Positions 14,130-31,438 of a stretch of 32,000 bases of DNA are shown piece by piece. The stretch's first letter is position 1, and every line of letters starts with the position of its first letter. This DNA comes from an uncultured archaeon (lineage in GTDB: Archaea; Iainarchaeota; Iainarchaeia; Iainarchaeales; JAAZKV01). The notes under the pieces were generated by a model. The model ran no database searches. It was not told the origin of the DNA and saw only the letters and a list, made by a program, of their open reading frames with translations. The translations under genes were made by a program, and so were the position numbers. The stretch covers positions 330,001 to 362,000 of the forward strand of contig CAZKBG010000001.1 in NCBI GenBank assembly GCA_964551375.1, given 5' to 3'.

Positions 14130-16676
14130 TCAGCTTGCTTTTGCAGGCAACTCTGTTTTAACAGAAACCTTTTCAGTTTCTTTAGACTCTATTTTTTCTT
14201 TTTGAGAAGTTTTTTTTTGATTTGGAGAATTCTTTTTCAAATAAGAAGAAGTTTTAGGTTCCGAATCTGAATTTTTCAAATCAACAGCAGGGCCTGCCGC
14301 ATTCCCTTCACTTCCTTTGCCTTTTCTCTTTGACAATCTTGATCTTATTGCAAGAAGAACTAAAACTAATAGCACTACTAACAACACCTCAACAAAGGGT
14401 ATTGAATATGCAGAGAAAAACCCAGTCAAAGTAAGCCCTTTTCCAGCAGGCATTAGCGAAAATGACTTTGATTTGCTGAAATTCCCAGCCGAAGTAACAA
14501 TTACAAACACTGCATTTGCATCATGAACTGATGAATTATAATCATGCGGGATGAAAAGCTTCCCTGCGAGCGAAACTCCCGGAGCAAGGTAAGTATTTTT
14601 ATTCAAATCAAGAACTGCATTCAAATCCTTAACCAAAATATTGTTCAAATTAAATCCGCTATTTGAATCATTCTTTACAACTATCTCAATTTCAGCCAGA
14701 CCTGCGGCGTAATTAATGTCAATTGCGTTTAACGACAGCAAAATTTTATTTGAATCAACAAACTGCTTCGCTGGACTTGCATTTATTTTTAACAAGAGTT
14801 CTTTTGAAACATTTTTGTCATTGACAACAACAATTTTTGCGTTTAAAACTCCTTCTGTGTTTGCATCAGGAGAAGCATAAACAAATACTCTCTTTGATTC
14901 TTTTGGAGTTAATGAAAAGCTGTCTTCGCTTAATGAAACCCATGAAGGAAATGCTTTCTTTAAAGTATAAACTGAATTGAAAAACCCGGTGTTTGATACA
15001 TCCAAATCAACTAATTTTCCGCTGCAGCAATTTGCGTCAATTTCATACTTTGAAAGAGAAGCAATAAAATCATTGCACTTTTCCACGCCTAAATCAGAAA
15101 TGCTTATTGATTGTTCTACTTCCTGTTGAGCTGATTTTGCGGTGATTTTGTAAGTTTTTGAAAAATTACTTGGCACAAATCCTTTTACTGACACAGCCTT
15201 TTTTGAATTAGCGTCAATTACAAAAGGACCGGGGCTTATATTCAGCCAAGGGGCGTCAATTGAGAGTGAAACTACCTGCGTTCTTGTTCCTTTATTTTCA
15301 ACATCAAAAACATAATCAATGCTTAAATTTGAGCAAGTCCCAAGGTTTGAAACATCAGCAGTTAAATCATAGCAGTTCTCAAAATTGAATTTATAATTCA
15401 AATCTTTTGAGAAGCTCTGAGAAGAAATCCTTGCCAAAATATCAGAACTGCCCGCAGAGTTTGGAGAAACTATAAAAGAAACGCTTCTTGACTCGCCTTT
15501 TAACAAAACCAAGGATTTTGACTCAACTAACTTTCCATCAATGAAAAGAGATACATCAACTGTTGACTGATTTGTTCCCGTGTTTTTTACAATAAACTCT
15601 TCGCTTCTTTTCCCAAAGCACTGGCTTATTTCGGTTGATTTGCGTTCAATAGTCGCATCAAAGCAGTTTTCAAATTTGAACTCAAAAGGAATGTCAAAAT
15701 TTCTATCAAACTCTTTTGAATAAGCTCTAATAAATCCTGTTTTTATTCCATTGCTCTTTTTGATGCTTAAAGTTATATTTTCGCTTTTATTTTTATCAAT
15801 TAAAACAATGTTTTTATCAAGCGCTGCCAACTGCTGTGAAAGTTGCGACTTATTCGCGTCAAGAAGAGACAAACTTATTGTGTCAGGCCTCATTGAAACG
15901 CTCTTTACCTCAAACAATTCTTCCGAATCGCTTTCTTCGCACAAAGTTTTAGTATATTTAGAAGATTCGCCTAAAAGCTTTCCAATTGTAAACGGAGCTC
16001 CGCCTAAAACGGATAATGAAATGTTTTTTGAAATTCCAAAATTAGTCATTGTGTTTGCGGCAATAAGCTGGAAGGGATAATTTTTCGGCTCAGCGTTGCA
16101 AAAAGGATTCAATTCAAGAGTTCCTTCAAATGAAGAAAAAGGCGCAAGAACTATTTTTTCCTGAGGATAAACTGCCCAGTTTTCCATAAGTCCTTTTTGC
16201 AGCAAAACAAACTCATCAGTGAAAGCGCCTTTATTTTTTAAAACAAATTTGGTTTTTGCGCTCTCGCAAGGATTTATAGAAAAGCTTGGAGAAATTATAT
16301 TCAAATCAGCTGTGTGGCACTGTCTTACTACAAGATTGTATTCCTTCACTAAATTTTCAGGCCCTCTGAAATTTAATGGAATTTTATAATCTCCAGAAAA
16401 TGCGTAGCAGTCAGGAGTAATGAAAAGATAAATATCCGCGCAGGAATTTTTTGTCAAATCAATTACGTTTGGAGCAAATGAAAACCATTTTCCTTCTACT
16501 GAATCTGCTGAAACTGAGTACATGCCCGGAACAACAGAACAAACGCTCATTTTTTGCTTTACCTGCTCGCACTGGCAGAGATTTGCATAATTTGAGCCCG
16601 AAACTGTTAAAGCTGACGCAAAAGAAGCGCTTAATATGATTGTAATTAGAATTACTAATATTGCGCTATATTTCAT
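14130..16676 (-). CDS. large secreted surface protein with Cys-bracketed Ig-like (CARDB/NEW3-like) repeats, a C-terminal TM anchor and a Lys/Ser-rich cytoplasmic tail
   Basis: Signal peptide MKYSAILVILITIILSASFASA. Modules of the type ..C(F/Y/N)D..x10-13..C...V.N.G...W recur, e.g. NCFDATIERKSTEISQC..VKNTG and NCYDLTADVSNLGTC..VENKG. N-x-S/T sequons are frequent. The TM helix VEVLLVVLLVLVLLAI is followed by a tail of about 70 aa. ATG 16676 is preceded by GGGTTGGGG; the track uses TTG 16685. Confidence 0.75.
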   Translation of the reverse strand: MKYSAILVILITIILSASFASALTVSGSNYANLCQCEQVKQKMSVCSVVPGMYSVSADSVEGKWFSFAPNVIDLTKNSCADIYLFITPDCYAFSGDYKIPLNFRGPENLVKEYNLVVRQCHTADLNIISPSFSINPCESAKTKFVLKNKGAFTDEFVLLQKGLMENWAVYPQEKIVLAPFSSFEGTLELNPFCNAEPKNYPFQLIAANTMTNFGISKNISLSVLGGAPFTIGKLLGESSKYTKTLCEESDSEELFEVKSVSMRPDTISLSLLDANKSQLSQQLAALDKNIVLIDKNKSENITLSIKKSNGIKTGFIRAYSKEFDRNFDIPFEFKFENCFDATIERKSTEISQCFGKRSEEFIVKNTGTNQSTVDVSLFIDGKLVESKSLVLLKGESRSVSFIVSPNSAGSSDILARISSQSFSKDLNYKFNFENCYDLTADVSNLGTCSNLSIDYVFDVENKGTRTQVVSLSIDAPWLNISPGPFVIDANSKKAVSVKGFVPSNFSKTYKITAKSAQQEVEQSISISDLGVEKCNDFIASLSKYEIDANCCSGKLVDLDVSNTGFFNSVYTLKKAFPSWVSLSEDSFSLTPKESKRVFVYASPDANTEGVLNAKIVVVNDKNVSKELLLKINASPAKQFVDSNKILLSLNAIDINYAAGLAEIEIVVKNDSNSGFNLNNILVKDLNAVLDLNKNTYLAPGVSLAGKLFIPHDYNSSVHDANAVFVIVTSAGNFSKSKSFSLMPAGKGLTLTGFFSAYSIPFVEVLLVVLLVLVLLAIRSRLSKRKGKGSEGNAAGPAVDLKNSDSEPKTSSYLKKNSPNQKKTSQKEKIESKETEKVSVKTELPAKAS

Positions 16677-16691
16677 TATCCCCAACCCGCA

Positions 16692-16753
16692 AAACTAACT
16701 TAATCCAATTAAACTAACTTAATTTGTTTAAACTAACATACTTAAAACTAATT
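16692..16753 (-). repeat. imperfect ~19-bp direct repeats carrying AAACTAAC (GTTAGTTT on the coding strand) in the promoter region of the 848-aa gene
   Basis: AAACTAACTTAAT occurs at 16692-16704 and 16711-16723, AAACTAACATACTT at 16730-16743 and AAAACTAATT at 16744-16753. On the minus strand this gives GTTAGTTTAA twice (16718-16709 and 16737-16728), which is TATA-like. Confidence 0.6.
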
Positions 16754-16778
16754 ATCAGCTGAAATTAAATTCACTATG

Positions 16779-16828
16779 AAAAATTAAAACAAATAATTAA
16801 ATTGGATGCAATAAAATTAATGCATCCA
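16779..16828 (-). terminator. hairpin spanning the stop codon of the 828-aa gene, followed by T-tracts
   Basis: TGGATGCA (16803-16810) pairs with TGCATCCA (16821-16828) across a 10-nt loop that contains the TAA stop. On the minus strand, T4 and T5 runs follow (plus-strand A-runs at 16786-16789 and 16779-16783). Confidence 0.45.
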
Positions 16829-19303
16829 GACTTCTTTTGCTTCGCCCGCAGAAGCTTTAGCCACTACAGCAATGAATCCCACAAATAATATCAAAATAAT
16901 CGCTGCGACTATTCCGATGAATATTGCTTCAAGGGTTAAATCCGCAAGCCCAAACAATCCTGCGAAGAATCCTGTTCCTGACTTGTCAGGATTATATTCT
17001 ATTTCAAGATCAAAGCTTTTCTTGTTGATTAAATCCGCGCTTGATATTACAAACACTGGCTCAAACACGCCGTTAGTGTCACCTGCTTTGATTTTTCCTG
17101 AAATATTTGCTGACTTTCCTGACGCAAGAGTTGCGATTGTCACTGAATCAATGTTAACGTCCTTTGGAACGTTATCAAATGAAACAACAACATTCTTCAT
17201 ATCTTTTTCAGTATTGTTTCTAATCACAATTGAGTAAGTCGCGCTTGAGTTTCCCTTCATTTTAACTTTATTTGTTGAGCTTAGTATCTCAAGCCCGTCA
17301 AAGAAACTCTTTCCTAAAACGTTAAAGTAAATAGAAGCGCTTACTTCAACAGGACCTTTTAATTTTAGAGTAACTTTCTTGTCGCTTCCCACTCTTGCAG
17401 CGAGCCCAACTGATACTGCGGCGTAAATTTTCTTTGATTCGCCTTTCTTTATCACAAAGCTGTTTTCTGAAAGCGAAACATTTACGCTCCCAGGAGTATC
17501 AATTACTGAAATTACATAATTTGAATCAAGGTCCCCTGTATTAACCGCCTCGACTTCAAATACCTCAGTTTCTCCCTGAGTTATGTCCTTTGACTGAGTG
17601 TTAACAAATAACCCTGCTTTTGATTCAGGCGCAACGTTAACGCAAATTGTTTTTGATTCTTTATATGCATCCCATTCAGGACCGTCAACTGCAGACAGAG
17701 TCAAATAATTTTTTCCAGCAGATATTTCTTTTGGAACTTTAATTGTGTAATTAACCGCCCTTCCTTCACCGGCATTTAGAGTCACTGAAGAATATGCCAG
17801 TTCAGAAGGCATCCCAGTTAATTTGAAATTGAATGTTTTTGGATTAAAATAGCAGTCATCATTTCCGATTATTGGTCTTGAAATATTAAACTGCCCTTCA
17901 AGAGTCTGCCCTCTTCTAACATCGTAACATATGCTTGGAACTGAAAGCGAGAAAGTTCTTGATACAACGCTTGAACAATCCACTACTTCAACATCCATTC
18001 TTTTCTGAATGTGGAAGTCATCAGCATCGCCTAAAAGCGTGATTGACTGGTGCCCCAAATCAAGATACTGCGCGTTTATTACTAATTTCATTTCTTTCTG
18101 TTCTCCAGAAGCAAGAGTAACGCTGTCTCTTGTGAAATACGGAAGAACCATTGAGTTATCCGCAAGAAGCCTTATTTTCTTCTGAACTGAAGAAGTGTTT
18201 CTTACCATCACAGTAAATTCCTTTGACTGTCCTTTGCATACTTTTCCATCCGTTTCAAGAATTCTAAATCCGTCAAAGTTATTGCAAGTGCCTACTTCAG
18301 CGCTTATTCTTGTTTTGAGGTTTGTATCAAGCGCAAATACTTCAATATCATATTTTCTTTCTTCAGCCCCGCAGGTGTTTGTGTTTAGTGTAAAATACGC
18401 TGTTGAATTTGCTGCTGCGCAAACTTCCCCCGGAGTTACTGAAACATTAAGCAAATTATAAGGAGTTGATTCTGCGTCAAAATCAAAGCATCTTCTTGAA
18501 CTTGTGTTATTCACTAGTTTCATTTGAGTGCCGAATGAATTGCATCTCTCAAGGCAGATTCCGTAATTTGCCGCTTCAAGATAAAATCCTCTTTCAGCGC
18601 CATTGCTTGGATTTGCACCACTATCAAAGCAGTTTGAGCTTACTGAATATAGTAAATTTGCGTCCTTTCCTCTTGAATCAACCGCTCTTATTTTCATTGA
18701 AGAAGTAAGGTGCCTGTTTGAGCTTACATCGCAAGACAAATAATTTCCGTCTTCAAGGTAACAATTCAGCCCTGTTGGATTAACTTGTTCTATTAAACTA
18801 AATGTCACGTTTTTGCCGTCTTCGCGGTCGTTAATATAATCTTTCAAATTAACAAATCTTGAATTTGAGTCAGAAATACAAATCTGCGGAAGCGGGTTCC
18901 AAACAGGATTAAAATTCCTTACTGAAAGTGTAAAAAAGTCTTGTGAATAGTGTCCGAAGCTATCATCTACTCTTACAACAACTTCACTTTCTGAATCTCT
19001 GCATGAATTTATTCTGCATGAAATATAAGTATTGTTATCTATTACACAATTTGCAAGGCTTGTATCAGACTGTGAAACAATCGAGTATCTTAATGCAAGA
19101 ACGTTTGAGTCGCTTGAGTAATCAGGAAGATAGAACATTTTGTTTAAATCTTCAGTACAGCTCACAGTTCTTGAGGGAACATTTAATGAAGGAGAATTTG
19201 ATGCTGATGCGTCTGCAAATCCTGCAAAAGCAATTACTAACAGCATTACGCCTAAAATAATGCACAAATTGCTTAGACTAAAAAAACCTTTCTTATTCCC
19301 CAT
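16817..19303 (-). CDS. large secreted surface protein, paralogue-like of the 848-aa protein (Ig-like/CARDB-like repeats, C-terminal TM anchor)
   Basis: Signal/anchor segment FFSLSNLCIILGVMLLVIAFAGFADA. Cys-bracketed modules include GTCNNFDGFRILETDGKVC..VRNTS and VDCSSVVSRTFSLSVPSIC. CARDB-like strands include VEAVNTGD and IVIRNNTEKD. C-terminal TM helix is AIFIGIVAAIILILFVGFIAVV. A strong SD (GGAGGG, plus-strand ccctcc at 19311-19316) lies 7 nt before the ATG. Confidence 0.75.
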   Translation of the reverse strand: MGNKKGFFSLSNLCIILGVMLLVIAFAGFADASASNSPSLNVPSRTVSCTEDLNKMFYLPDYSSDSNVLALRYSIVSQSDTSLANCVIDNNTYISCRINSCRDSESEVVVRVDDSFGHYSQDFFTLSVRNFNPVWNPLPQICISDSNSRFVNLKDYINDREDGKNVTFSLIEQVNPTGLNCYLEDGNYLSCDVSSNRHLTSSMKIRAVDSRGKDANLLYSVSSNCFDSGANPSNGAERGFYLEAANYGICLERCNSFGTQMKLVNNTSSRRCFDFDAESTPYNLLNVSVTPGEVCAAANSTAYFTLNTNTCGAEERKYDIEVFALDTNLKTRISAEVGTCNNFDGFRILETDGKVCKGQSKEFTVMVRNTSSVQKKIRLLADNSMVLPYFTRDSVTLASGEQKEMKLVINAQYLDLGHQSITLLGDADDFHIQKRMDVEVVDCSSVVSRTFSLSVPSICYDVRRGQTLEGQFNISRPIIGNDDCYFNPKTFNFKLTGMPSELAYSSVTLNAGEGRAVNYTIKVPKEISAGKNYLTLSAVDGPEWDAYKESKTICVNVAPESKAGLFVNTQSKDITQGETEVFEVEAVNTGDLDSNYVISVIDTPGSVNVSLSENSFVIKKGESKKIYAAVSVGLAARVGSDKKVTLKLKGPVEVSASIYFNVLGKSFFDGLEILSSTNKVKMKGNSSATYSIVIRNNTEKDMKNVVVSFDNVPKDVNIDSVTIATLASGKSANISGKIKAGDTNGVFEPVFVISSADLINKKSFDLEIEYNPDKSGTGFFAGLFGLADLTLEAIFIGIVAAIILILFVGFIAVVAKASAGEAKEVWMH

Positions 19304-19305
19304 AA

Positions 19306-19983
19306 CTAAACCCTCCTATTTACTCTTGCGATAAATGCAATCAATAAAACGGCTGCAATAAGAACCATTATCCAAAACAACACCCATTCAAACGGAGAAA
19401 GTTTTTCAAGATCTTCATTTAAAGCCCCTATGCTGAAAAATGCTCCAATCGCATTTTCAGTGTTTGATGCACTTTTTTTCTGGAAAGATAAAATTATTGA
19501 GTTTCTGTCGGCTTTCTGCCCCACCATTGCCTCAATTGTCGCATCAACATCCCCGCTGATGTTTGAGTTATTATAAACCACAATTTTTGCTTCTGAAGTT
19601 GAATTTGGAAGAATTGTTTTAGGAGCAAATACTTCTGAACGAACGGGAGAATAAAAATTAACTACCACATTAGCAGTGCTTGTTGAGTCATTTGTTAATT
19701 TAACATAAAATGTTGCTTTATCATTCACCACAACGCTTTCTGGAGCTGAAATATTTAATGCGTGCCCGTATGAGCCTATTAGTAGAATGAAAAATAAAAG
19801 AGCAACAAGCAGATATTCCTTATCCATTTTGAACATGCCCCCCATCCCTTTTGAATCAGGAAGGTCAAAGCCCAAAAGCATTTTTGAAAGAGACTTTTTT
19901 GCAGGAGTTTTTGGCTTTGCTTCAGCTGGAGTTTTTGATGCAACATCTTTTGGCTTTGCGCCCTCGGCCACGTGTTCACTCAT
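19306..19983 (-). CDS. bitopic membrane protein with one Ig-like ectodomain and a Lys/Pro/Ala-rich N-terminal tail
   Basis: The first ~55 aa are low-complexity (KPKDVASKTPAEAKPKTPAKK). They are followed by LLVALLFFILLIGSYGHA, an Ig-like segment (FYVKLTNDSTSTANVVVNF) and the C-terminal TM helix WVLFWIMVLIAAVLLIAFIARVNRRV. The stop lies 2 nt from the next start. GGGGTTGGG lies 5 nt upstream of ATG 19983. An internal start at MFKMDKEY is an alternative. Confidence 0.65.
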   Translation of the reverse strand: MSEHVAEGAKPKDVASKTPAEAKPKTPAKKSLSKMLLGFDLPDSKGMGGMFKMDKEYLLVALLFFILLIGSYGHALNISAPESVVVNDKATFYVKLTNDSTSTANVVVNFYSPVRSEVFAPKTILPNSTSEAKIVVYNNSNISGDVDATIEAMVGQKADRNSIILSFQKKSASNTENAIGAFFSIGALNEDLEKLSPFEWVLFWIMVLIAAVLLIAFIARVNRRV

Positions 19984-20009
19984 TAATGCCCAACCCCAAT
20001 AAAACTATT

Positions 20010-20052
20010 AACTTTGCCTGCAAAGTTGTTAACTTTGTTAAATTACAAAGTT
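20010..20052. promoter_or_regulatory. two adjacent inverted repeats with identical arms (AACTTTG-N4-CAAAGTT and AACTTTG-N8-CAAAGTT)
   Basis: First repeat: 20010-20016 pairs with 20021-20027. Second repeat: 20031-20037 pairs with 20046-20052. The left arms are 21 bp apart. The pair lies between the TATA box at 20082-20089 and ATG 19983. Confidence 0.5.
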
Positions 20053-20081
20053 ATTCAATAAGTAATTTGCTGCAGAAGGAG

Positions 20082-20089
20082 TATATAAA
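20082..20089 (-). promoter_or_regulatory. TATA box (TTTATATA on the minus strand) for the 225/828/848-aa gene unit
   Basis: Plus-strand tatataaa reads TTTATATA on the minus strand. A T5 termination-like run for the upstream 84-aa gene lies at 20108-20112 (plus-strand AAAAA). The predicted TSS is near 20059. Confidence 0.45.
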
Positions 20090-20156
20090 GATAACGCCTT
20101 AAATCCAAAAACAGACAAACTGATTATTATACACAAAAGAGCAAAATAACCCAAAA

Positions 20157-20411
20157 TTAAGCAGTATTAGCAGGGGTTTGAGGAGGACTAACCACCGCAA
20201 CATTAGCCCCGCTTGAAGTGCTTGTTGAAACAGAGCCTGTTAAAAGAGATGCATTAAATTCCTTCAAATACTGGGCAACTGATTGCCCCGCAGCCGAAGA
20301 TGCGCCGCCAAAATCAGGAACCGATGGAGGAACAACAGTAGTAACCGCAGCAAAAACAACCGCAAGCAATAGCAGCACTACCACTCCAATCGCAATAATT
20401 CTTTTCATCAT
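20157..20411 (-). CDS. small secreted or anchored Ser/Thr/Ala/Pro-rich protein (84 aa)
   Basis: The N-terminal hydrophobic segment MMKRIIAIGVVVLLLLAVVFAAV is followed by a low-complexity S/T/A/P tail. The gene is co-directional with the cluster and has AGGGAT 5 nt upstream of the ATG. An antisense 73-aa ORF exists and is less convincing. Confidence 0.5.
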   Translation of the reverse strand: MMKRIIAIGVVVLLLLAVVFAAVTTVVPPSVPDFGGASSAAGQSVAQYLKEFNASLLTGSVSTSTSSGANVAVVSPPQTPANTA

Positions 20412-20458
20412 AAAAATCCCTTTAATTCTACTTCAATAACATACTAACCTAAACACCA

Positions 20459-20471
20459 ATATTAAACTAAC
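20459..20471 (-). promoter_or_regulatory. GTTAGTTTAATAT promoter-like element upstream of the 84-aa gene
   Basis: Plus-strand ATTAAACTAAC at 20461-20471 is identical to 16708-16718. On the minus strand it reads GTTAGTTTAATAT, about 50 nt upstream of ATG 20411. Confidence 0.4.
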
Positions 20472-20481
20472 ACCCGAACCA

Positions 20482-23400
20482 TTATTTATTTACTATCTTA
20501 AGCCACTTTATGCCATTAAATCCAAATCTTTCCCCGCTTGCCATTAATACTGCAACTCTTTTGTAAGTTGTGTCAGTTGGAGTCTCAGCAACTAACGCAG
20601 CATACTGCTTATTTTCAATTACAATCCAAGCAGGATTGAAAACCATATTTTCAGTGCCTTTCAATAATTTTGGCTGAGTGAAACTAAAGTTAGTTCCAAG
20701 CGACTTCATCTGCTCGCTGATTGACTGCGAATTTGTCTGGAAAGAATAATTAGGAGTCTTTGGCTCAACACCGTAATTGAAAACAGTAGGCTCAACAATC
20801 AAAAACTTTCCTGCAATATCCTTCATGAAAACATACCTCTGGTAAACAACATTTTTATCATCAGACCAAACCATCTGAACTCCGCTCAAAGTATCAACTG
20901 AAGACGGAGCAAGATTGTTCACCGCGTCATATACAAACTGCTGCATTGCAGCATCAACCGCAGTCGGAGCCGTATCAACAGGAGTTGGAGTTGCCCTCAA
21001 TCCAGGCAGTTCAATCACATCATGAAGAGTAATATCAGTCGCAGGATCGCAAGTAGGGTCATATGCGCTTTTTGGAACACAGCCAAGCCCCAAATTATTC
21101 AAAACATTTCTTGTCCAGTCCTGCTGGTCTAAAAGCTTGAAATCATTAATAGTCCCCTGCCCTATGTAATTTGCAGTAGCAGTGTCAAGCTGAGTTCCTT
21201 TATCGCTTGAAGTTGCGCTTGAATCCTTACTTTTTAACTGAGCCTTCAAATCATCAACTGCTTTATACGCAGCATCTCTTTCAGCAGCAATCGATTTAGT
21301 TGAAGTTCTTGCAGCATCCCTTTGAGCTTCAGCCGCCGCTTTATTTTTCTTTTCATCAGCAAGCTGTTTCTTCAAAGAATCAATCTGGGCAGAGTCAGCG
21401 CCAGTCTGTCCTTCAAGATCTTTAATTCTTGCTTCAAGGCCTGCAATTGAATCAGCATAACCGGCAATTCCCGCTTCGAGCTCTGCCTGGGCATATTCAG
21501 CAGTAATTGCTCTCTGTGTAGCATCTCTTGCTTCATCAGTTTTGGCTTTTAATTGAGTAGCAAGATTAGCCGCCGCCGCATCCAAATCTTCATAATTGCT
21601 TAAAGAAATCCACAAGCTTGTTTCAAGAGATTTATTTTTTGCTTCTAAATCCTTAATTGTCTGTTCTGCTTTGACAAGAGCTGCCCTTGCTGTTGCAAGT
21701 TCATTTGTAGGAGCGCATGAAGCAGCAGGAATAGACGCGCCTGTTGAAACTCCCGCACTGCAGGTTGTAGGCGCAGTTCCGCCCTTGATTTGCAAAGTCA
21801 CTGAAGTCTTTTTGCAAGTCCAGTTGTCAATATTTTTATCAAACACAATTGATCCATCCTTGGCGCAAACACCCTGCTGGATATCCTTATCGCCAGCTGT
21901 AATAGTAAAACCGCCCTTAGCCTGCTTATTGTTCATAGTCAAATAGTCCGCAATCCACTCAACTTTAACTTCCTTTGAAGTATGATAAGGCAAATTATTC
22001 ACAACAACAACCCACTTCTTGCTGTCAACAGGGTGCTTAATGAAAGCGCTGAACTCATCAGCAGCGTTAGAAGAATTGGAAGAAACAATCTTGCCGTCAA
22101 TCATAAATGAATGCTTCACAATAGAAGGATCAATATACTTCTCAATGCTCCAAGAAGAAGTAGCGCTGAACTTCTTTGTTGAAAGAGAGGATTCAAAACC
22201 ATCCTCAAATTCTCCGATGAAATAACCTTGAGTATAATTTCCAAGAGTTGCTGCCCCGCCCCCAGTGTAAGTAAATGCCTGAATTATTGGATACCCTTCA
22301 GTTGCAACTCCAACTGCAAGCTTCTGATTCATGAAAGTATCAAACTCTCCGACAACTCTGCTTCTTGCCCTCTGGGAAGAATAACTTGAAATCCCCATCT
22401 GAACAGGAACTAACGGAGCTGAAACAACGCCAAGCAAAGTCTTGCCAACTGCGCTAACTCTTGACATCCAAACGCCTTTTCCAAATCCAATGCTTGCCCA
22501 TGCTTTTGCATCGCTTTCATTTCCAGTAAAAATATCTTTTGTGCTCCCCCAAAGCCCTTTGAAGTAATTTCCAAATCCTTTCCAAAGACCGTCCCACCAG
22601 CCGTCATTATCAATAACGCTTTTCTTAAAATCAGCAGCAACATCCGTAATGTCTTTCTTTAACGCACCGCTGTTATCAGTAAATAATGGAGTATAAACAG
22701 CATCACAATAATTCATGTTTGTGAATTTATCAGGTCTTCTGATGAAAGCGCACTTTGAAGTGCTTAATTTTGTCTGAACATCATTATGCGCAATTGTGGC
22801 AATTGCCGGATTAAATCTTACAAACACTGCTATTGCATAATCTTTTCCATTTGTAAGAGTTGTTTTTAATCCTGAAAGATTACATTCAAATACTTTATCA
22901 TTTCCGCTTCCCTTGTTTGGGTTCCAGGCAATATTTTTAATAACGGTTTCAATTGTAACATTATCCTGCGGAACTGCTCCTTTTGGCCAGCAATACTGCT
23001 GATAAACTGCTTTCTTTGTTGAAAGGTCATAAACTTGATAATCAATGTAATAAACAACAGGCGGGTCTTTTTCAGCAATATCCGATTCAACCTGCCCAGT
23101 CATTGTTAAACTTGAAGTTAAAAGAGATGCAATCCCATCCCAACCAGGCGCAGTGTCCATCTTATTCAATAAATCTTTTTCAAAATTCATATTGTTTGCA
23201 GTATTTGGCTGAACAACAATAACTTCAGGCCAGTACTCGGAAGGAATAATGCTTCCATCTTCATTTCCAATCATTTTAATATTAAAAGTATCATATTGAG
23301 TTGAAGTAAAAGGAATTGCCCACACTTGATTATTTTTATTCGCAAATGCTTTGAAGAACTCAATCTTTGGACCTGCAAGAGAAGCTTCTCTTTGTGAAAA

Positions 23401-24297
23401 CAAAAGACCCATTTTTGCAACATTAATAACTTCAAGACCAACTTGAACAATCAACAAAGCGCCGAATCCCTTTGCCATAAAAGTTTTGAATCCAGGAGTT
23501 CCAACAGTCCAAGGCTTAACAACCTTTGGAGGAGTAGGCTCAGGAACAACAGGAGTTGGAGTAGGAGTAACAGGCTCAGGAGTAGGAACAACAGGAGGCA
23601 CTGGCTCAGGAACAACAGGCTTAGGAGTAGGAGTAACAGGCTCAGGAGTAGGAACAACAGGCTCAGGTGTAACAGGAGTCACTGGTTTAGGAGTAGGAAC
23701 AACCGGCTCAGGGTTAGGGTTAGGCGCAGGAACAGGAGTTTGTCCGCCGTTTCCAGGACCGCCGGCGCCGCTTCCGCCATTAACTGTAATCTTAATTTCA
23801 TTTATATTTACTAATTTTCCTTTCGCAGCAGCCTCAGCAGATGCTTCAGCAGCAGTGCCGGCCCCAACTTTTTCAGGAGTATTAGGCGCAGGAGTTACTG
23901 GTTCAGGAACAGGGAATTTAGTAATATCAATTTTCCAAGCCTTTCCAACCTGTTGAACTTTATCAATAGTAGTATTGAATTTGTAAGAAGTTACTTTTTC
24001 AGTAGGAGTAGTGTAAAAAGAAGTCCCCTCAGTTATATTATAAACAGAATTAAGTTTCACTCTCAAATCAGCAGCATTGGCAGGCTTTACTGCGCTAATA
24101 GCGGTTTTTGGCATCCCTAATTTTTCAAAAGCAGCTCTTACAAAGCCCACATCATCAGTTGGGACAGCAGTAATTTCAAAACCAAGATTGCTTCCCGCCT
24201 TGTTTATCAAAGTCGTGTCAACAGCAGTTGCTGAAAAAACAACCATTGAAAATAGAATCAAAAAAAGCACTAAAACTGCCCGCTTGTTAACATTCAT
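20482..24297 (-). CDS. giant secreted protein (~1271 aa): signal peptide, Pro/Thr stalk, hydrophobic segments, Ala-rich coiled coil, C-terminal beta-rich domain; function unknown
   Basis: ATG 24297 overlaps the upstream stop as ATGA and is preceded by GGTGG 6 nt upstream. Signal peptide: MNVNKRAVLVLFLILFSMVVFSATA. PT-rich stalk at nt 23515-23742. Hydrophobic segment GFGALLIVQVGLEVINVAKMGLLF at nt 23401-23469. A 160-aa heptad-like Ala/Lys/Glu region at nt 21226-21705. The track start at 24315 (MRRWFC) is less likely. Confidence 0.75.
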   Translation of the reverse strand: MNVNKRAVLVLFLILFSMVVFSATAVDTTLINKAGSNLGFEITAVPTDDVGFVRAAFEKLGMPKTAISAVKPANAADLRVKLNSVYNITEGTSFYTTPTEKVTSYKFNTTIDKVQQVGKAWKIDITKFPVPEPVTPAPNTPEKVGAGTAAEASAEAAAKGKLVNINEIKITVNGGSGAGGPGNGGQTPVPAPNPNPEPVVPTPKPVTPVTPEPVVPTPEPVTPTPKPVVPEPVPPVVPTPEPVTPTPTPVVPEPTPPKVVKPWTVGTPGFKTFMAKGFGALLIVQVGLEVINVAKMGLLFSQREASLAGPKIEFFKAFANKNNQVWAIPFTSTQYDTFNIKMIGNEDGSIIPSEYWPEVIVVQPNTANNMNFEKDLLNKMDTAPGWDGIASLLTSSLTMTGQVESDIAEKDPPVVYYIDYQVYDLSTKKAVYQQYCWPKGAVPQDNVTIETVIKNIAWNPNKGSGNDKVFECNLSGLKTTLTNGKDYAIAVFVRFNPAIATIAHNDVQTKLSTSKCAFIRRPDKFTNMNYCDAVYTPLFTDNSGALKKDITDVAADFKKSVIDNDGWWDGLWKGFGNYFKGLWGSTKDIFTGNESDAKAWASIGFGKGVWMSRVSAVGKTLLGVVSAPLVPVQMGISSYSSQRARSRVVGEFDTFMNQKLAVGVATEGYPIIQAFTYTGGGAATLGNYTQGYFIGEFEDGFESSLSTKKFSATSSWSIEKYIDPSIVKHSFMIDGKIVSSNSSNAADEFSAFIKHPVDSKKWVVVVNNLPYHTSKEVKVEWIADYLTMNNKQAKGGFTITAGDKDIQQGVCAKDGSIVFDKNIDNWTCKKTSVTLQIKGGTAPTTCSAGVSTGASIPAASCAPTNELATARAALVKAEQTIKDLEAKNKSLETSLWISLSNYEDLDAAAANLATQLKAKTDEARDATQRAITAEYAQAELEAGIAGYADSIAGLEARIKDLEGQTGADSAQIDSLKKQLADEKKNKAAAEAQRDAARTSTKSIAAERDAAYKAVDDLKAQLKSKDSSATSSDKGTQLDTATANYIGQGTINDFKLLDQQDWTRNVLNNLGLGCVPKSAYDPTCDPATDITLHDVIELPGLRATPTPVDTAPTAVDAAMQQFVYDAVNNLAPSSVDTLSGVQMVWSDDKNVVYQRYVFMKDIAGKFLIVEPTVFNYGVEPKTPNYSFQTNSQSISEQMKSLGTNFSFTQPKLLKGTENMVFNPAWIVIENKQYAALVAETPTDTTYKRVAVLMASGERFGFNGIKWLKIVNK
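23537..23661 (-). repeat. 66-nt (22-aa) tandem duplication inside the Pro/Thr stalk
   Basis: The 59-nt blocks at 23537-23595 and 23603-23661 differ at 3 positions. They encode PVVPTPEPVTPTP(K/T)PVVPEP(V/T)P. Confidence 0.9.
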
Positions 24298-24950
24298 GCA
24301 GAACCACCTGCGCAATACACAGCGGTTTCATCAACCATTGTTTTTGTAAAATCAACAAACTGCTTTTCAGCATCCAAATCAATCAATAAAGGCATTGAAT
24401 ATAAATCATAAGTTAAAATAAAATCAGAATTTTTATTTGACAATGCTTCAACATCATTATACATTGACTGCGCTTTTGAAGGAAGCGAGTTAACAAAAGT
24501 CAAATCATTACAGCTGAATTCCTTATTCGCGCCTTTTGCCAAATCATTCAAATAAATTTCATTTTTCATTCCAAAATCGATTGCAGAAGCGTACAAATCC
24601 GCTGCTGCTGACAATTCGTCAGAAACTTCTTTTGACTCCGCCCTTGAAGCAATACTGTCTGAAAAATTAGCCAATTGAACTTTCACTTTTGCAAGATTTT
24701 CCTTTTTCTCAACCCAAACAACTTTATTTGCGCTGGATAAATTAACCATGTTCAACTGCTGAACGTTGTTTATATTCACATCATTAATCTCAAAAATATT
24801 CAAAATCTCGCCGTAACCTGCTTCTAGAGATACTTTTTGGAAAGGCAAAAAAGAAATTGCGCCTTTATTTGTATAAAGATAATACCCAGCGGCGATTAGT
24901 ATCACTATTACAAGCAGAATTATCATGTTTCGCCAGCGCTTGTCCATCAA
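24294..24950 (-). CDS. N-terminally anchored membrane protein (218 aa), first gene of the surface cluster
   Basis: TM anchor: MMDKRWRNMIILLVIVILIAAGYYLY. The ectodomain looks helical and shows no motif I recognise. Its stop TGA overlaps the ATG of the giant gene (ATGA at 24294-24297). Confidence 0.65.
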   Translation of the reverse strand: MMDKRWRNMIILLVIVILIAAGYYLYTNKGAISFLPFQKVSLEAGYGEILNIFEINDVNINNVQQLNMVNLSSANKVVWVEKKENLAKVKVQLANFSDSIASRAESKEVSDELSAAADLYASAIDFGMKNEIYLNDLAKGANKEFSCNDLTFVNSLPSKAQSMYNDVEALSNKNSDFILTYDLYSMPLLIDLDAEKQFVDFTKTMVDETAVYCAGGSA

Positions 24951-24987: not shown

Positions 24988-24997
24988 GTATATATAC
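24988..24997 (-). promoter_or_regulatory. palindromic TATA element GTATATATAC in the divergent intergenic region
   Basis: It is centred about 43 nt upstream of ATG 24950. It is the only strong TATA-like element in the 167-bp divergent region on that side. Confidence 0.4.
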
Positions 24998-25117
24998 CTT
25001 TTCTTCAGGAGAAATGAGTTGGGGAAATTAGCAAAAAAATTGTTTTTAAATAAAAATTGCCGTAAGCTAATGCGGGATTTAAATATTTATGTAAACAGAG
25101 TATTATAGTGCGAAAAA

Positions 25118-25882
25118 ATGGCTAAAGTGAACGGCAAAAACATTATGCTTACAAGCGAAGAGGCTTCAATGCTTGAAGAAGGACACGAATTTGAACTCAT
25201 TCCAAACCAAAAAGGAATGTTCCTCTTAATCGACAAGGAAAAGATTAATGAAAAAGAAGCCCCAAAGCCAAAGCATGAGGAAAAAAACGCTGAAGAGAAA
25301 GAACAAGTAATCGGGCTTATAAAAAAAGCAAGGCTCTCAGACCTTGTGGAAGGAAAATTTGAAACCACGCTTGATGAAAAGCAAAAAAAAGCGCTTTTAT
25401 CCCTTGTTGTGGAAGGAAAAGTATTTGTATTCAAATTAAATGAAACCTACAAAAAAGGAGTTTATAGAGTAAAGGATGAAATTATTGAAGAAGCGAAAAG
25501 AGAAAAAAAAGAGTCAGAAGATTTTAACGCGCCTGAAAAAGAATCAAACGCATACAACCTTGGAGCAGACGGATTTATGATTATCAAAGGAAAGGACGGG
25601 GCAAGCAGAGCAAGCCACGAATTTGAAAGAGATATTAAAGAAGGACTCTTAAGAGGAATTCGAAGCTTTGACGGAAACTATTATTTAATCCAAACTGATT
25701 TACTCATACCTTATCTAAACAAATCAGTAATGTCATTCGCTCAAAAAGAAAACCAGACAATTGAAGAGCTGGCGCAGAATTTGAAAGTTTCCAAAGTTCT
25801 GACAAGAATCGTCTGCGAATTTTTAAAAGACGAAGGCGAGCTGATGGAAAAGAAAAAAGGAATTTATCACTACATCAAGTAG
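25118..25882 (+). CDS. Lys/Glu-rich protein with two winged-helix-like segments (putative DNA-binding protein)
   Basis: The C-terminus IEELAQNLKVSKVLTRIVCEFLKDEGELMEKKKGIYHYI and the internal KKALLSLVVEGKVFVFKLNETYKKGVYRV both look like a helix-turn-helix plus beta-wing. TTTAAATA (25078-25085) lies upstream. The gene is divergent from the surface cluster. Confidence 0.5.
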   Translation: MAKVNGKNIMLTSEEASMLEEGHEFELIPNQKGMFLLIDKEKINEKEAPKPKHEEKNAEEKEQVIGLIKKARLSDLVEGKFETTLDEKQKKALLSLVVEGKVFVFKLNETYKKGVYRVKDEIIEEAKREKKESEDFNAPEKESNAYNLGADGFMIIKGKDGASRASHEFERDIKEGLLRGIRSFDGNYYLIQTDLLIPYLNKSVMSFAQKENQTIEELAQNLKVSKVLTRIVCEFLKDEGELMEKKKGIYHYIK

Positions 25883-29289: not shown

Positions 29290-30606
29290 ATGAAAGGGCA
29301 CAATAAACTTGCATTACTGTTTGTAATGCTTATTTTCTCATGCGTAGCGGCTCTTGCGCTTTCGGCAGATGAGGCAATTGCAATTGCAACTGTTCAAAAC
29401 AACTTTCTTTCAAGCGGAGAAACAGCATCAGTTGCGAAAGAAATGATTTCTTATAACGGCGACAAATTTATCATAGTTGCGGCGCAAAGCAACTCAAAAG
29501 CAAATTGTTACATACCAATAAAGAACCAGACAGGCGAGATTTACTCAAATGATTTGGGAATAAGAGAGCTCATCAAAACAACAATAGTTTATACGCAGAC
29601 TGATTCTCTCAAAAACAGCACAAGAGCGGCAAGCTGGCCGTTTTCATACTCCACTCAAAACTCTCTTGGCGACTGGGCAAATGATTTTACCACCCTAATG
29701 ACGCAGATAATCACAGTTGAAACTGAACTAAATAAAATTAATATGACTGAAGCAAAAGCTCTTGCGGTAAAAGCAAATGAAGCGCAGGCGCTGGCGGAAA
29801 TTACTTCAGATTTATGCGCTGATATTTCAAGAGATGTTGAAAGAGCAAAACAACTGGAGCAGAGCTTTTTAGACAGCCCTGATTCAAATGAAGTTTCAAA
29901 ATATGAAACGGCCTATAAAAATTATTTTGAAAAAATCAGCGAGCTGAAAAACAATTACACAGAGCTTGACAACAGGCTTAATGTTCTAAGCCAAGGAATT
30001 GGAAGCCTTGAAACAAACCAGCTAACAATTGACCAGAAAAGAGGACTGTTAAATTTACTTTCAATGCCTGTTAATGCTTCAAGACTCCCTTCATTTTTCA
30101 ACGAAAGCGTTCAATTAAGAACCACAATTGAAGGAATTTTCAGCGATGCAAAAAACAGCGACAGCTATGCTTCAACACTTGCTTCAAGAAAAAACAGAAA
30201 CGAAGCATGGAAAGCATTATACGGATACAACGAAAGCCTTGTAAAACTTGACAAGAGCTTCACTACACTTGAAAACGCAAGCAACGCAATACTGCTTGAA
30301 GAAAATGTGAATTTATGGGTTAATCAGGACGGAGTTGAGGCATTGAAAATAAACTGGAGCTCCGCAAAAAACAGATACAGCACTGCAGAATATGAAAAAG
30401 CAAGGGATTTTGCGTCAAGAGCAAAAAAGAATGTTGAACAAATAATGGCTGAAGGAGTGGTTCCAGCAGTGGACAATTCGCAGGACTTAATAGTAAAAGT
30501 AATAGGCGGGCTGATTGCAGCAGTGGTGATTATATTTGTTATTGAAAAACTATTCCTTAAGAAAAAGAAAAAACCGGAGGAATACGATGAAGCAGAATAT
30601 AACTAA
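29290..30606 (+). CDS. secreted helical/coiled-coil protein with C-terminal TM anchor (438 aa)
   Basis: Signal peptide MKGHNKLALLFVMLIFSCVAALALSA, a long helical region rich in N-x-S/T sequons, and TM helix VIGGLIAAVVIIFVI followed by KKKKKPEE. TTTAATAT lies about 25 nt upstream of the ATG. Confidence 0.65.
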   Translation: MKGHNKLALLFVMLIFSCVAALALSADEAIAIATVQNNFLSSGETASVAKEMISYNGDKFIIVAAQSNSKANCYIPIKNQTGEIYSNDLGIRELIKTTIVYTQTDSLKNSTRAASWPFSYSTQNSLGDWANDFTTLMTQIITVETELNKINMTEAKALAVKANEAQALAEITSDLCADISRDVERAKQLEQSFLDSPDSNEVSKYETAYKNYFEKISELKNNYTELDNRLNVLSQGIGSLETNQLTIDQKRGLLNLLSMPVNASRLPSFFNESVQLRTTIEGIFSDAKNSDSYASTLASRKNRNEAWKALYGYNESLVKLDKSFTTLENASNAILLEENVNLWVNQDGVEALKINWSSAKNRYSTAEYEKARDFASRAKKNVEQIMAEGVVPAVDNSQDLIVKVIGGLIAAVVIIFVIEKLFLKKKKKPEEYDEAEYN

Positions 30607-31438
30607 ACTAATATCAACTGCGCTGATGTTTTCGCTTGTCCTATTCATTGCATTAAATGTTAATTCCCAAATACTTGCAAGCGCATCAACTGACAAAAAG
30701 ACTTTTGGAGAAAATGAAGTGGGGCTTTTGACTGTAAAATTAATGAACGACTCCGAAATTGAGCTTAAAGGAGTGGCGCTAAGAATACAGGGCGATGAAG
30801 GAATAGTGTTTTATGAAGGAATGCAGGAAGTTCCGCTTTACCTAAAGACAATTGATTCATTAAAACAAAACGAAGTAAAGCAGATTGTCATAAAATTCAA
30901 ATCTACTCTGGCAAAAAAGGCAACTTCAAACATTTACGCTTATTATGGAAAAGTATCAGAACTTACAACCGCATCAGTAACAATGATTGAAACAAAACCA
31001 AGCCCTGTTTTTATTGAAACAAGCACAAAAAGAAGCACTGTTAACTCAAACGAGCAGATAGAAATTGATTACACTCTTACAAACGGAAACAACACGCCAA
31101 TTTATGGAGTAAGCGCTGAAATGATTGCCCCAATCGGGTTTGAAATTATAACCCCTCAGGTAAAGGAAGAAGTTGTTTCTCCAAAAGGAGAAATGCACCA
31201 GAAATTCAAAGTAATCGCGCCCGAAAAATCGGCAGGAGAACAGCAAATAATAATTGCATACGGATACTTTGACGCAAACACTCCCCACTACTTTGAAAAA
31301 ACATTCAAATTCAATATTGAAAGACCAAATTACCAATTGATAATCCTTATCGGAGTAGTTGTGCTCATTGTCGCAGGATATTTATTTTTTAGAAAAGGAA
31401 AAGGCTCAGGCGTTGTAGGCACAGACGGCAAAAAATAG
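30587..31438 (+). CDS. secreted protein with two CARDB-like Ig domains and a C-terminal TM anchor
   Basis: ATG 30587 is preceded by GGAGG (30576-30580) and overlaps the upstream gene by 20 nt. Signal segment LISTALMFSLVLFIALNVNSQILASA. Ig-like strands LLTVKLMNDSE and IDYTLTNGNNTPI. TM helix LIILIGVVVLIVAGYLFF followed by RKGKG. The track start at 30536 is probably too early. Confidence 0.65.
   Translation: MKQNITKLISTALMFSLVLFIALNVNSQILASASTDKKTFGENEVGLLTVKLMNDSEIELKGVALRIQGDEGIVFYEGMQEVPLYLKTIDSLKQNEVKQIVIKFKSTLAKKATSNIYAYYGKVSELTTASVTMIETKPSPVFIETSTKRSTVNSNEQIEIDYTLTNGNNTPIYGVSAEMIAPIGFEIITPQVKEEVVSPKGEMHQKFKVIAPEKSAGEQQIIIAYGYFDANTPHYFEKTFKFNIERPNYQLIILIGVVVLIVAGYLFFRKGKGSGVVGTDGKK

Follow-up and report, generated by a model that had tools for sequence, protein, structure and literature searches.

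The window analysed here is a 32,000-nucleotide stretch of contig CAZKBG010000001.1 from an uncultured archaeon (assembly GCA_964551375.1). Its minus strand carries, at positions 20482..24297, a long open reading frame, here called BIG, that runs from an ATG start through 1271 amino acids (aa) to a stop codon. An alternative in-frame start, a TTG at 24315, lies 18 nucleotides (nt) upstream and would add 6 aa; it is an unlikely start. The product is identical to a deposited NCBI protein encoded on a 946-kb contig. In comparison with L005, a partial orthologue of 83% identity, the ratio of nonsynonymous to synonymous substitution rates (dN/dS) is 0.13 overall; it falls to 0.07-0.09 for the centre of the protein and is ~0.2 for the stalk and the N-terminal domain. 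These values are approximate, as the synonymous rate (dS) is near saturation. On this evidence BIG is a real gene under purifying selection. The window also encodes housekeeping proteins, including Pus10, NucS and valyl-tRNA synthetase (ValRS), so the host is an archaeon; that it is a DPANN-type organism is plausible.

The GC content of BIG is 40.8%, compared with 35-40% nearby. A preliminary description of this DNA had noted the excess and explained it partly by amino acid composition. The excess is indeed present, but composition accounts for all of it: it is confined to codon positions 1 and 2, and the GC content at third positions (GC3) of BIG, 0.299, is the same as in the adjacent envelope genes (0.29-0.30), with the housekeeping neighbours higher. 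Horizontal transfer as the source of the excess was ruled out because GC3 matches that of the neighbours, and there is no sign of foreign origin. Across the envelope genes in 14130-24950, GC3 is 0.29-0.30 as against 0.31-0.37 in the housekeeping neighbours, a difference that may reflect the codon usage of highly expressed genes.

Modular layout of the BIG product

The translation divides into the segments listed below from the N terminus onward. P0002, P0003, P0008, P0009 and P0011 are related proteins. KD19 denotes a hydrophobicity score, and Hessa-scale dG values (kcal/mol) are position-independent sums on the scale of Hessa et al. 2005. Structure predictions were made with AlphaFold2 (AF2).

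24220..24297, minus strand: Sec-type signal peptide, aa 1-26 (…FSATA/VD), with KD19 of 2.75 and summed Hessa dG of -3.0, as in genuine anchors
23914..24219, minus strand: N-terminal head domain, aa 27-128, which shares 73% identity with P0002 and has no relationship to the N-termini of P0011, P0008 and P0009
23743..23913, minus strand: Ala/Gly-rich linker with the Gly-rich hinge GGSGAGGPGNGG, aa 129-185, longer in P0002
23512..23742, minus strand: Pro/Thr/Val stalk, aa 186-262
22258..23511, minus strand: conserved family core, aa 263-680, the sole region common to all five homologues
23398..23490, minus strand: hydrophobic helix H1 of the core, aa 270-300 (GFGALLIVQVGLEVINVAKMGLLF), with KD19 of 1.75, Hessa dG of +5.7 and the invariant N292
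22528..22605, minus strand: Trp-rich amphipathic helix of the core, aa 565-590 (GWWDGLWKGFGNYFKGLWG), hydrophobic moment 0.36
22378..22467, minus strand: hydrophobic segment H2 of the core, aa 611-640, with KD19 of 1.58 and Hessa dG > +6
21712..22257, minus strand: beta-rich region and four-Cys module, aa 681-862 (C811, C828, C846, C861), with low-confidence AF2 beta strands
21232..21705, minus strand: continuous coiled coil, aa 865-1022, in a single heptad register
20485..21195, minus strand: C-terminal alpha/beta head domain, aa 1035-1271, with a C1073-C1083 pair and 48% identity to P0002

Every element named in the preliminary description was found in the translation, with some correction of extent and composition. 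An N-terminal domain of ~150 aa had been proposed; the domain is present, but the part conserved with the closest relative stops near aa 128. The central region, described as Trp/Gly/Tyr-rich, is enriched in Trp (2.7% versus 0.8% in neighbouring proteins, 3.4-fold), only mildly in Gly (8.0 versus 5.9%) and not in Tyr (3.6 versus 3.3%). The C-terminal domain had been read as lacking a transmembrane (TM) anchor and, when a C-terminal TM helix was looked for in BIG, none was found. The Pro/Thr/Val stalk is real and varies in length among strains. Pro makes up 42% of its 76 aa (186-261), Val 24% and Thr 16%, and the coding DNA is an imperfect tandem repeat of 66 bp in 1.9-2.6 copies; stalk length and repeat pattern differ in L005, and an analogous TTTPKP stalk differs between L012 and P0009.

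The core contains, in order, an invariant Trp (W263), H1, an alpha/beta domain with C436, C472, C516 and C531, a helical region and a K659…GYPI motif. The hydrophobic stretch within H1 spans aa 276-299, and that within H2 spans aa 613-635. A central Pro kept in all homologues divides H2 into two arms of ~12 residues each. The Trp-rich helix includes the motif WWDGLWKGFGNYFKGLWG at aa 567-584 and presents its aromatic residues at i, i+4, i+7, i+11 and i+15.

In the segment at aa 865-1022, one heptad register continues across all 158 residues. L, I, V, M, F, Y or W occupy 24 of the 45 a and d positions as against 7 of the 113 other positions (Fisher p = 2e-10), and the Fourier power at a period of 3.5 is 51.5 compared with 9.3 +/- 9.6 in shuffled sequences, 8 of 2000 of which reach 51.5. 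Generic coiled-coil models match aa 866-1031 (SMC 1.5e-6, crescentin 1e-3). AF2 places long helices here with pLDDT of 65-87, the only well-scored part of the model. The long coiled coil suggested at the outset is strongly supported by this heptad pattern, by the period-3.5 peak and by the predicted helices. It would measure ~23 nm if fully helical (0.15 nm per residue), and it is 39 residues shorter in P0002.

Homologues, conserved core and predicted topology

With the whole of BIG as the query, a word-indexed search of 5.8 billion proteins gave only three true hits: BIG, P0002 (a full-length match at 59% identity) and P0003 (46% identical across 35% of BIG). When P0008, a distant member, was the query, this search gave P0008 alone. 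An exhaustive HMMER profile search over 1.84 billion 50%-cluster representatives gave five family clusters, to which P0008 (795 aa) and P0009 (1665 aa) were the only distant additions; it also gave P0010, a tape-measure motif match, and a repeat protein, P0007, that was judged spurious. Two loci were recovered from GTDB genomes and three, two of them already known, from JGI metagenomes, which covered the same lineages together with strain variants. No relatives of BIG were found in viruses or plasmids by a scan of IMG/VR or by tblastn against INPHARED phages and PLSDB plasmids. Together with the stable chromosomal synteny, these negative results rule out a mobile-element or viral origin of BIG.

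Comparison with Pfam-A, NCBIfam and PHROGs gave no family above its gathering threshold for BIG, the only scores being for crescentin (18.7 of 100 bits) and SMC (26 of 567 bits), and Pfam had no match for any of the five core sequences. Among PDB sequences there was no match for BIG and nothing significant with profiles of the C-terminal domain or the beta region. Judged by sequence, the BIG family is new and fits no known family. The preliminary description had allowed that a remote-homologue search might place the central region in a known enzyme or S-layer fold; neither was found in these sequence comparisons or with Foldseek.

Conservation is concentrated in the core. Invariant residues there include W263, N292, W356-P357, N496-P497, C436, C472, C516, C531 and K659…G668-x-P670-I671. 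Outside aa ~263-680, the flanking regions are unrelated between lineages. P0009 has an unrelated 770-aa tail and P0008 is short; the beta-rich and four-Cys region is common to P0002 and partly to P0008, through a GGFT…GV motif, and the C-terminal head is absent from lineages other than that of P0002. In P0003 and P0011 the C-terminal part instead holds at least three LysM domains (E = 5e-24). The LysM domain (PF01476) is absent from BIG itself. LysM repeats are unusual for an archaeal surface protein, and their presence in this lineage, ‘archaeon SO_2016_GW1_66’ (L004, L006 and L011; P0003 and P0011), hints at binding of a glycan containing N-acetylglucosamine (peptidoglycan, chitin or N-glycans). 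The Trp-rich helix, taken as aa 565-598 (34 aa), aligns with one repeat unit of P0010, a member of the TMP_3 family, at an hhalign probability of 53%; this resemblance is motif-level and probably convergent.

AF2 was run with 4-5 sequences in the alignment. It gave a pLDDT of 42.6 for aa 258-1271, and a pLDDT of 53.1 with pTM 0.60 for the core, too weak for fold assignment. In the core model, alpha and beta elements form a mixed domain whose better-scored strands are at aa ~415-435 and 486-495; H1 precedes it as a long helix, and a helical region at aa ~548-667 and a last strand at GYPIIQ follow. Foldseek searches of these low-confidence models against the PDB and BFVD returned nothing below E = 0.2. 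Matches of 85-90 residues to Fn3/Ig-like domains recurred at probability <= 0.5 and are not interpretable.

The preliminary description had treated the two hydrophobic stretches as insertable into membranes. TM prediction fails for both, with Hessa dG of +5.7 for H1 and > +6 for H2, and ‘insertable’ is speculation. Across the homologues the internal segments have KD19 of 1.3-1.8 (about 1.6-1.75 in BIG), compared with 2.3-3.3 for the true anchors of neighbouring proteins, and summed Hessa dG of +3.5 to +6 kcal/mol, compared with -0.7 to -5.5 for true anchors. In P0008 and P0009, dG for H2 is +4.6 to +5.9, and H1 is charged and amphipathic (Arg, Lys, Glu or Asp). Since these dG values lie above the true-anchor range, H1 and H2 are, on the Hessa scale, not TM-competent. 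A signal peptide is present at the start of all homologues (n=5). The number of Cys residues in the mature chain is even in all five proteins (10, 10, 8, 6 and 8), with pairs N-terminal to H1, between H1 and H2, and C-terminal to H2. An extracellular location of the whole mature chain is strongly indicated by the paired Cys on both sides of H1 and H2, by the weak hydrophobicity of these segments and by the C-terminal LysM repeats of P0011, LysM being an extracellular module.

The same observations bear on a polytopic arrangement in which H1 and H2 would span the membrane and the Cys-containing core would be cytoplasmic. Two stretches of ~20 residues do reach the classical KD threshold of ~1.6, but we consider this topology highly improbable. 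At a Hessa dG of ~ +5.7 kcal/mol or higher, neither stretch is hydrophobic enough for translocon insertion; the charges on H1 in P0008 and P0009 speak against a membrane span, as does the conserved Pro that splits H2, and four invariant Cys lie inside the core with paired Cys on both sides of it. A two-TM topology was rejected on the Cys pattern and the Hessa dG.

Neighbouring genes

BIG lies in a cluster of genes for envelope proteins, with the following features around it.

24988..25000, minus strand: TATA-box-like element AAGGTATATATAC, read directly off the sequence, which lies ~45 nt before the ATG of g218 and may be an archaeal promoter of g218-BIG(-g84)
24294..24947, minus strand: g218, a type-II membrane-anchored protein of 218 aa, with an N-terminal TM helix and ~190 aa outside
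20157..20411, minus strand: g84, downstream of BIG by 70 nt, encoding a small protein that is secreted or N-anchored
19306-19983, minus strand: g225, with a signal peptide, Ig-like (CARDB/FixG_C/DUF11-like) domains and a C-terminal TM helix
16817-19303, minus strand: g828, with the same elements as g225
14130-16685, minus strand: g851, with the same elements as g225

The gene order is the same in every lineage: a divergent g254, then g218, BIG, g84 (or a 218-249-aa form), g225, g828, g851 and a tRNA-edit-like gene. In six loci of related archaea, an orthologue of BIG is found at the equivalent syntenic place. The stop codon of g218 overlaps the start codon of BIG (ATGA, 24294-24297), and this overlap and the gene order are kept in L001, L004, L005, L007, L008 and L012, which speaks for coupled translation and for a physical association of the two proteins. 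T-rich tracts and another TATA-like element follow g84 and suggest that g218-BIG-g84 and g225-g828-g851 are separate transcription units.

Where ValRS is 70-75% identical, identity is 31-38% for g828 and g851, 31-36% for g218 and 21-25% for BIG, the fastest-diverging gene of its neighbourhood. The g84 product is a shortened version of the 218-249-aa secreted protein that follows BIG in distant relatives (L007 12438-13094; L012 9543-10292), with 31% identity over the first ~87 aa. The Ig-like, C-terminally anchored g225, g828 and g851 are syntenic in all relatives and are probable S-layer or anchor proteins.

In g851, g828 and g225, a [ST]G[AFLW]F motif was observed 5-25 residues before the C-terminal TM helix (for example SGTGFFAGLF, LTLTGFFSAY and AIGAFFSIG). 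This small-Gly-aromatic motif is loosely kept in the orthologues (L001, L004, L007 and L012) and may, by analogy, be a sorting or processing signal reminiscent of PGF-CTERM. The divergent g254 (25118-25882, plus strand) encodes a 254-aa cytoplasmic protein without a Pfam or NCBIfam match that is found at the same position in all relatives with 45-75% identity; its C-terminus is winged-helix-like, and it could be a regulator of the cluster.

The cluster is flanked by genes for ValRS, acylphosphatase, cysteine desulfurase, a PHP-domain protein and a CDP-alcohol transferase. Further along, the plus strand encodes two more envelope proteins. In the 438-aa protein (29290-30606) a long helical region lies between a signal peptide and a C-terminal TM helix; in the 300-aa protein (30536-31438) an Ig-like domain takes its place. 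Both are syntenic in relatives, and genes for surface proteins are numerous in this chromosomal region.

Interpretation and comparison with known systems

We favour, with a probability of about 0.5, the reading of BIG as an exported, oligomeric, envelope-attached fibre protein, adhesin-like in character, that belongs to a lineage-specific envelope gene cluster. This reading draws on a constrained gene with synteny in six loci, on signal peptides, weak internal hydrophobicity and even Cys counts, on conservation restricted to the core with polymorphic lengths of stalk and coiled coil, on the coiled coil itself, and on the ATGA overlap and the all-envelope neighbours. The swapping of terminal modules, LysM repeats included, and the fastest divergence in the neighbourhood fit an adhesin-like surface fibre.

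In such a fibre, BIG and g218 would be made from one transcript with coupled translation, a proposal that starts from the observed overlap. BIG would be exported by the Sec pathway with removal of its signal peptide, and the Cys pattern and weak internal hydrophobicity suggest that the mature chain would lie entirely outside the cell. The core at aa 263-680 could act as a hub that holds the protein on the envelope. This putative hub would comprise an alpha/beta domain stabilised by disulfides, with a hydrophobic helix, an interfacial helix rich in Trp and a hydrophobic hairpin kinked by Pro at its flanks, and it might attach by binding g218 or other envelope proteins, or through a monotopic dip into the outer membrane leaflet. 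From it an N-terminal arm would project as a polyproline-type stalk of up to ~20 nm that carries a head of 100 aa. The C-terminal arm would run through the beta-rich and Cys module and the oligomerising coiled coil of ~23 nm to a head of 235 aa. The heads may be exchangeable ligand-binding modules, represented in one lineage by glycan-binding LysM repeats, so that BIG could serve as an adhesin or spacer that touches other cells or surfaces.

Several points weigh against this proposal. The geometry of a hub with two arms is read from the sequence, and the AF2 models (pLDDT 42.6 and 53.1) are poor. We infer wholly the mode by which BIG attaches to the cell, and likewise its oligomeric state and ligand binding. 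BIG itself has no recognisable binding domain, the LysM repeats being found in a relative only. N-glycosylation sequons are not enriched, with 11 observed and 10.5 expected, which is mildly atypical for an abundant archaeal surface protein. Finally, the signal peptide, the lack of an anchor and the anchored neighbours are facts on which an S-layer model draws equally.

The earlier preference for a fibrous adhesin or membrane-interacting protein over an S-layer subunit agrees with the stalk, the coiled coil, the swapped ends and the failure to find an S-layer fold, but an S-layer role keeps some probability. BIG could form the outer canopy of an S-layer as SlaA does, held by g828 and g851, by g218, or by both acting like SlaB. 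We regard this as unlikely, even though BIG has the signal peptide, more than 1200 extracellular residues and lack of an anchor that characterise a SlaA-like protein, and lies directly upstream of two Ig-like proteins with C-terminal TM helices, a layout like that proposed for the MJ1_0160 / MJ1_0707 pair of Nanobdella aerobiophila (bioRxiv 10.1101/2023.10.27.564410). Fast evolution without cross-lineage homology is also typical of S-layer proteins, and the low GC3 is common to the envelope genes. However, ~20% of the chain is flexible stalk or rod (the polyproline II stalk and the 158-aa coiled coil), which suits a fibre more than a lattice, and the wholesale swap of terminal domains, including LysM, is hard to square with conserved lattice contacts. 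No Ig-like or beta-sandwich array was detected, and neither PDB sequences nor Foldseek with the low-confidence models gave any similarity to a known S-layer protein. The lack of sequon enrichment counts against a canopy as well, and g828 and g851 are better S-layer candidates.

The hydrophobic elements of the core also admit a membrane-active module, in which H1, the Trp helix and the Pro-kinked H2 would insert into a foreign membrane on contact while the coiled coil oligomerises. Such a protein would resemble alpha-pore-forming toxins or viral fusion proteins, with metastable segments that are soluble at rest. The conserved segments are hydrophobic yet not TM-competent, within a fully secreted protein, and they lie in the conserved core and not in the variable arms; H1 is Gly/Ala/Phe-rich and fusion-peptide-like, the Trp-rich helix stands directly before the hydrophobic hairpin in a placement like that of a membrane-proximal external region (MPER), and the long coiled coil could oligomerise. 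The route of DPANN-type archaea through host membranes is moreover an open question (PMC11420986). We nevertheless consider this module quite unlikely. Searches of PDB sequences and with Foldseek revealed no resemblance to a pore-former or fusogen in either sequence or fold, and H1, which is charged in distant homologues, may simply be a buried or amphipathic core helix. BIG has neither a C-terminal anchor nor the arrangement of heptad repeats (HR1/HR2) of class I fusion proteins, and the organism may not be host-dependent. Distinctly improbable is the bolder proposal that the core is a new disulfide-locked membrane-active device, with swappable heads choosing the target, by which small symbiotic archaea breach or fuse the membranes of their partners. 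If membrane activity were true, the locus would point to a mechanism of inter-cellular membrane breaching.

As a fibre or adhesin, BIG would represent a new archaeal surface architecture, in which two arms project from a central anchor. Modular secreted surface proteins of archaea with a stalk and a coiled coil are, as a kind, known in outline. Hardly any of the proteins with which small, probably host-associated archaea grip or open other cells are known, and the locus offers a concrete candidate: an orphan family with a conserved hub, exchangeable and presumably ligand-binding arms, a coupled membrane partner and an envelope operon. The narrow distribution, five sequence clusters in public data, limits the reach of the finding.

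Several known systems share features with this locus. The SlaA/SlaB pair of the Sulfolobales and the MJ1_0160/MJ1_0707 pair likewise combine a large, Sec-exported, unanchored protein with anchored envelope proteins, and are lineage-restricted and fast-diverging. No sequence or fold similarity to SlaA/SlaB was found. BIG has a polyproline stalk and a 158-aa coiled coil in place of stacked beta-sandwich domains. The coiled coil also belongs to different partners: here to the unanchored protein, in SlaA/SlaB to the anchor, SlaB. Type-IV-pilus-like loci of DPANN archaea encode coiled-coil proteins (CCPs) that have been described as similar to reovirus sigma-1 (Hamm et al., bioRxiv 10.1101/2023.02.24.529834). 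Like BIG, these CCPs are secreted coiled-coil proteins of small archaea, and cell-cell attachment has been proposed for them. The architecture and the neighbouring genes of BIG differ, and no CpaF, TadC or pilin genes were found in the 32-kb window or in the related loci.

Phage tape-measure proteins carry Trp/Phe repeats (Pfam TMP, PF05017); BIG has a single such unit, without a TMP domain, tandem repeats or a phage context, and the likeness is confined to the motif. In contrast to class I viral fusion proteins, BIG has no C-terminal TM helix, and its single coiled coil begins ~570 aa after H1.

With its long uninterrupted heptad repeat, BIG can be placed among the coiled-coil fibrous surface proteins, a structural class and not a homology family. 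Tetrabrachion of Staphylothermus marinus is reportedly a surface glycoprotein with a long parallel coiled-coil stalk (~70 nm), globular or beta-rich arms and a C-terminal TM anchor. Both proteins join a coiled coil to arms, but BIG is without the anchor and without homology to tetrabrachion, and what is conserved in it is a hydrophobic, disulfide-bonded module at its centre. In bacteria, fibrillar adhesins whose stalks are rich in Pro or Pro/Thr, and coiled-coil adhesins of the M-protein type or the trimeric autotransporters, are built from a stalk, a rod and variable heads. BIG has a comparable set of parts, namely a signal peptide, a stalk of low complexity whose length varies, a rod formed by the coiled coil, and variable distal heads under diversifying turnover. 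It differs from these adhesins in having no LPXTG motif, beta-barrel or other known anchor, in its archaeal host, and in that its conserved part is central and not terminal.

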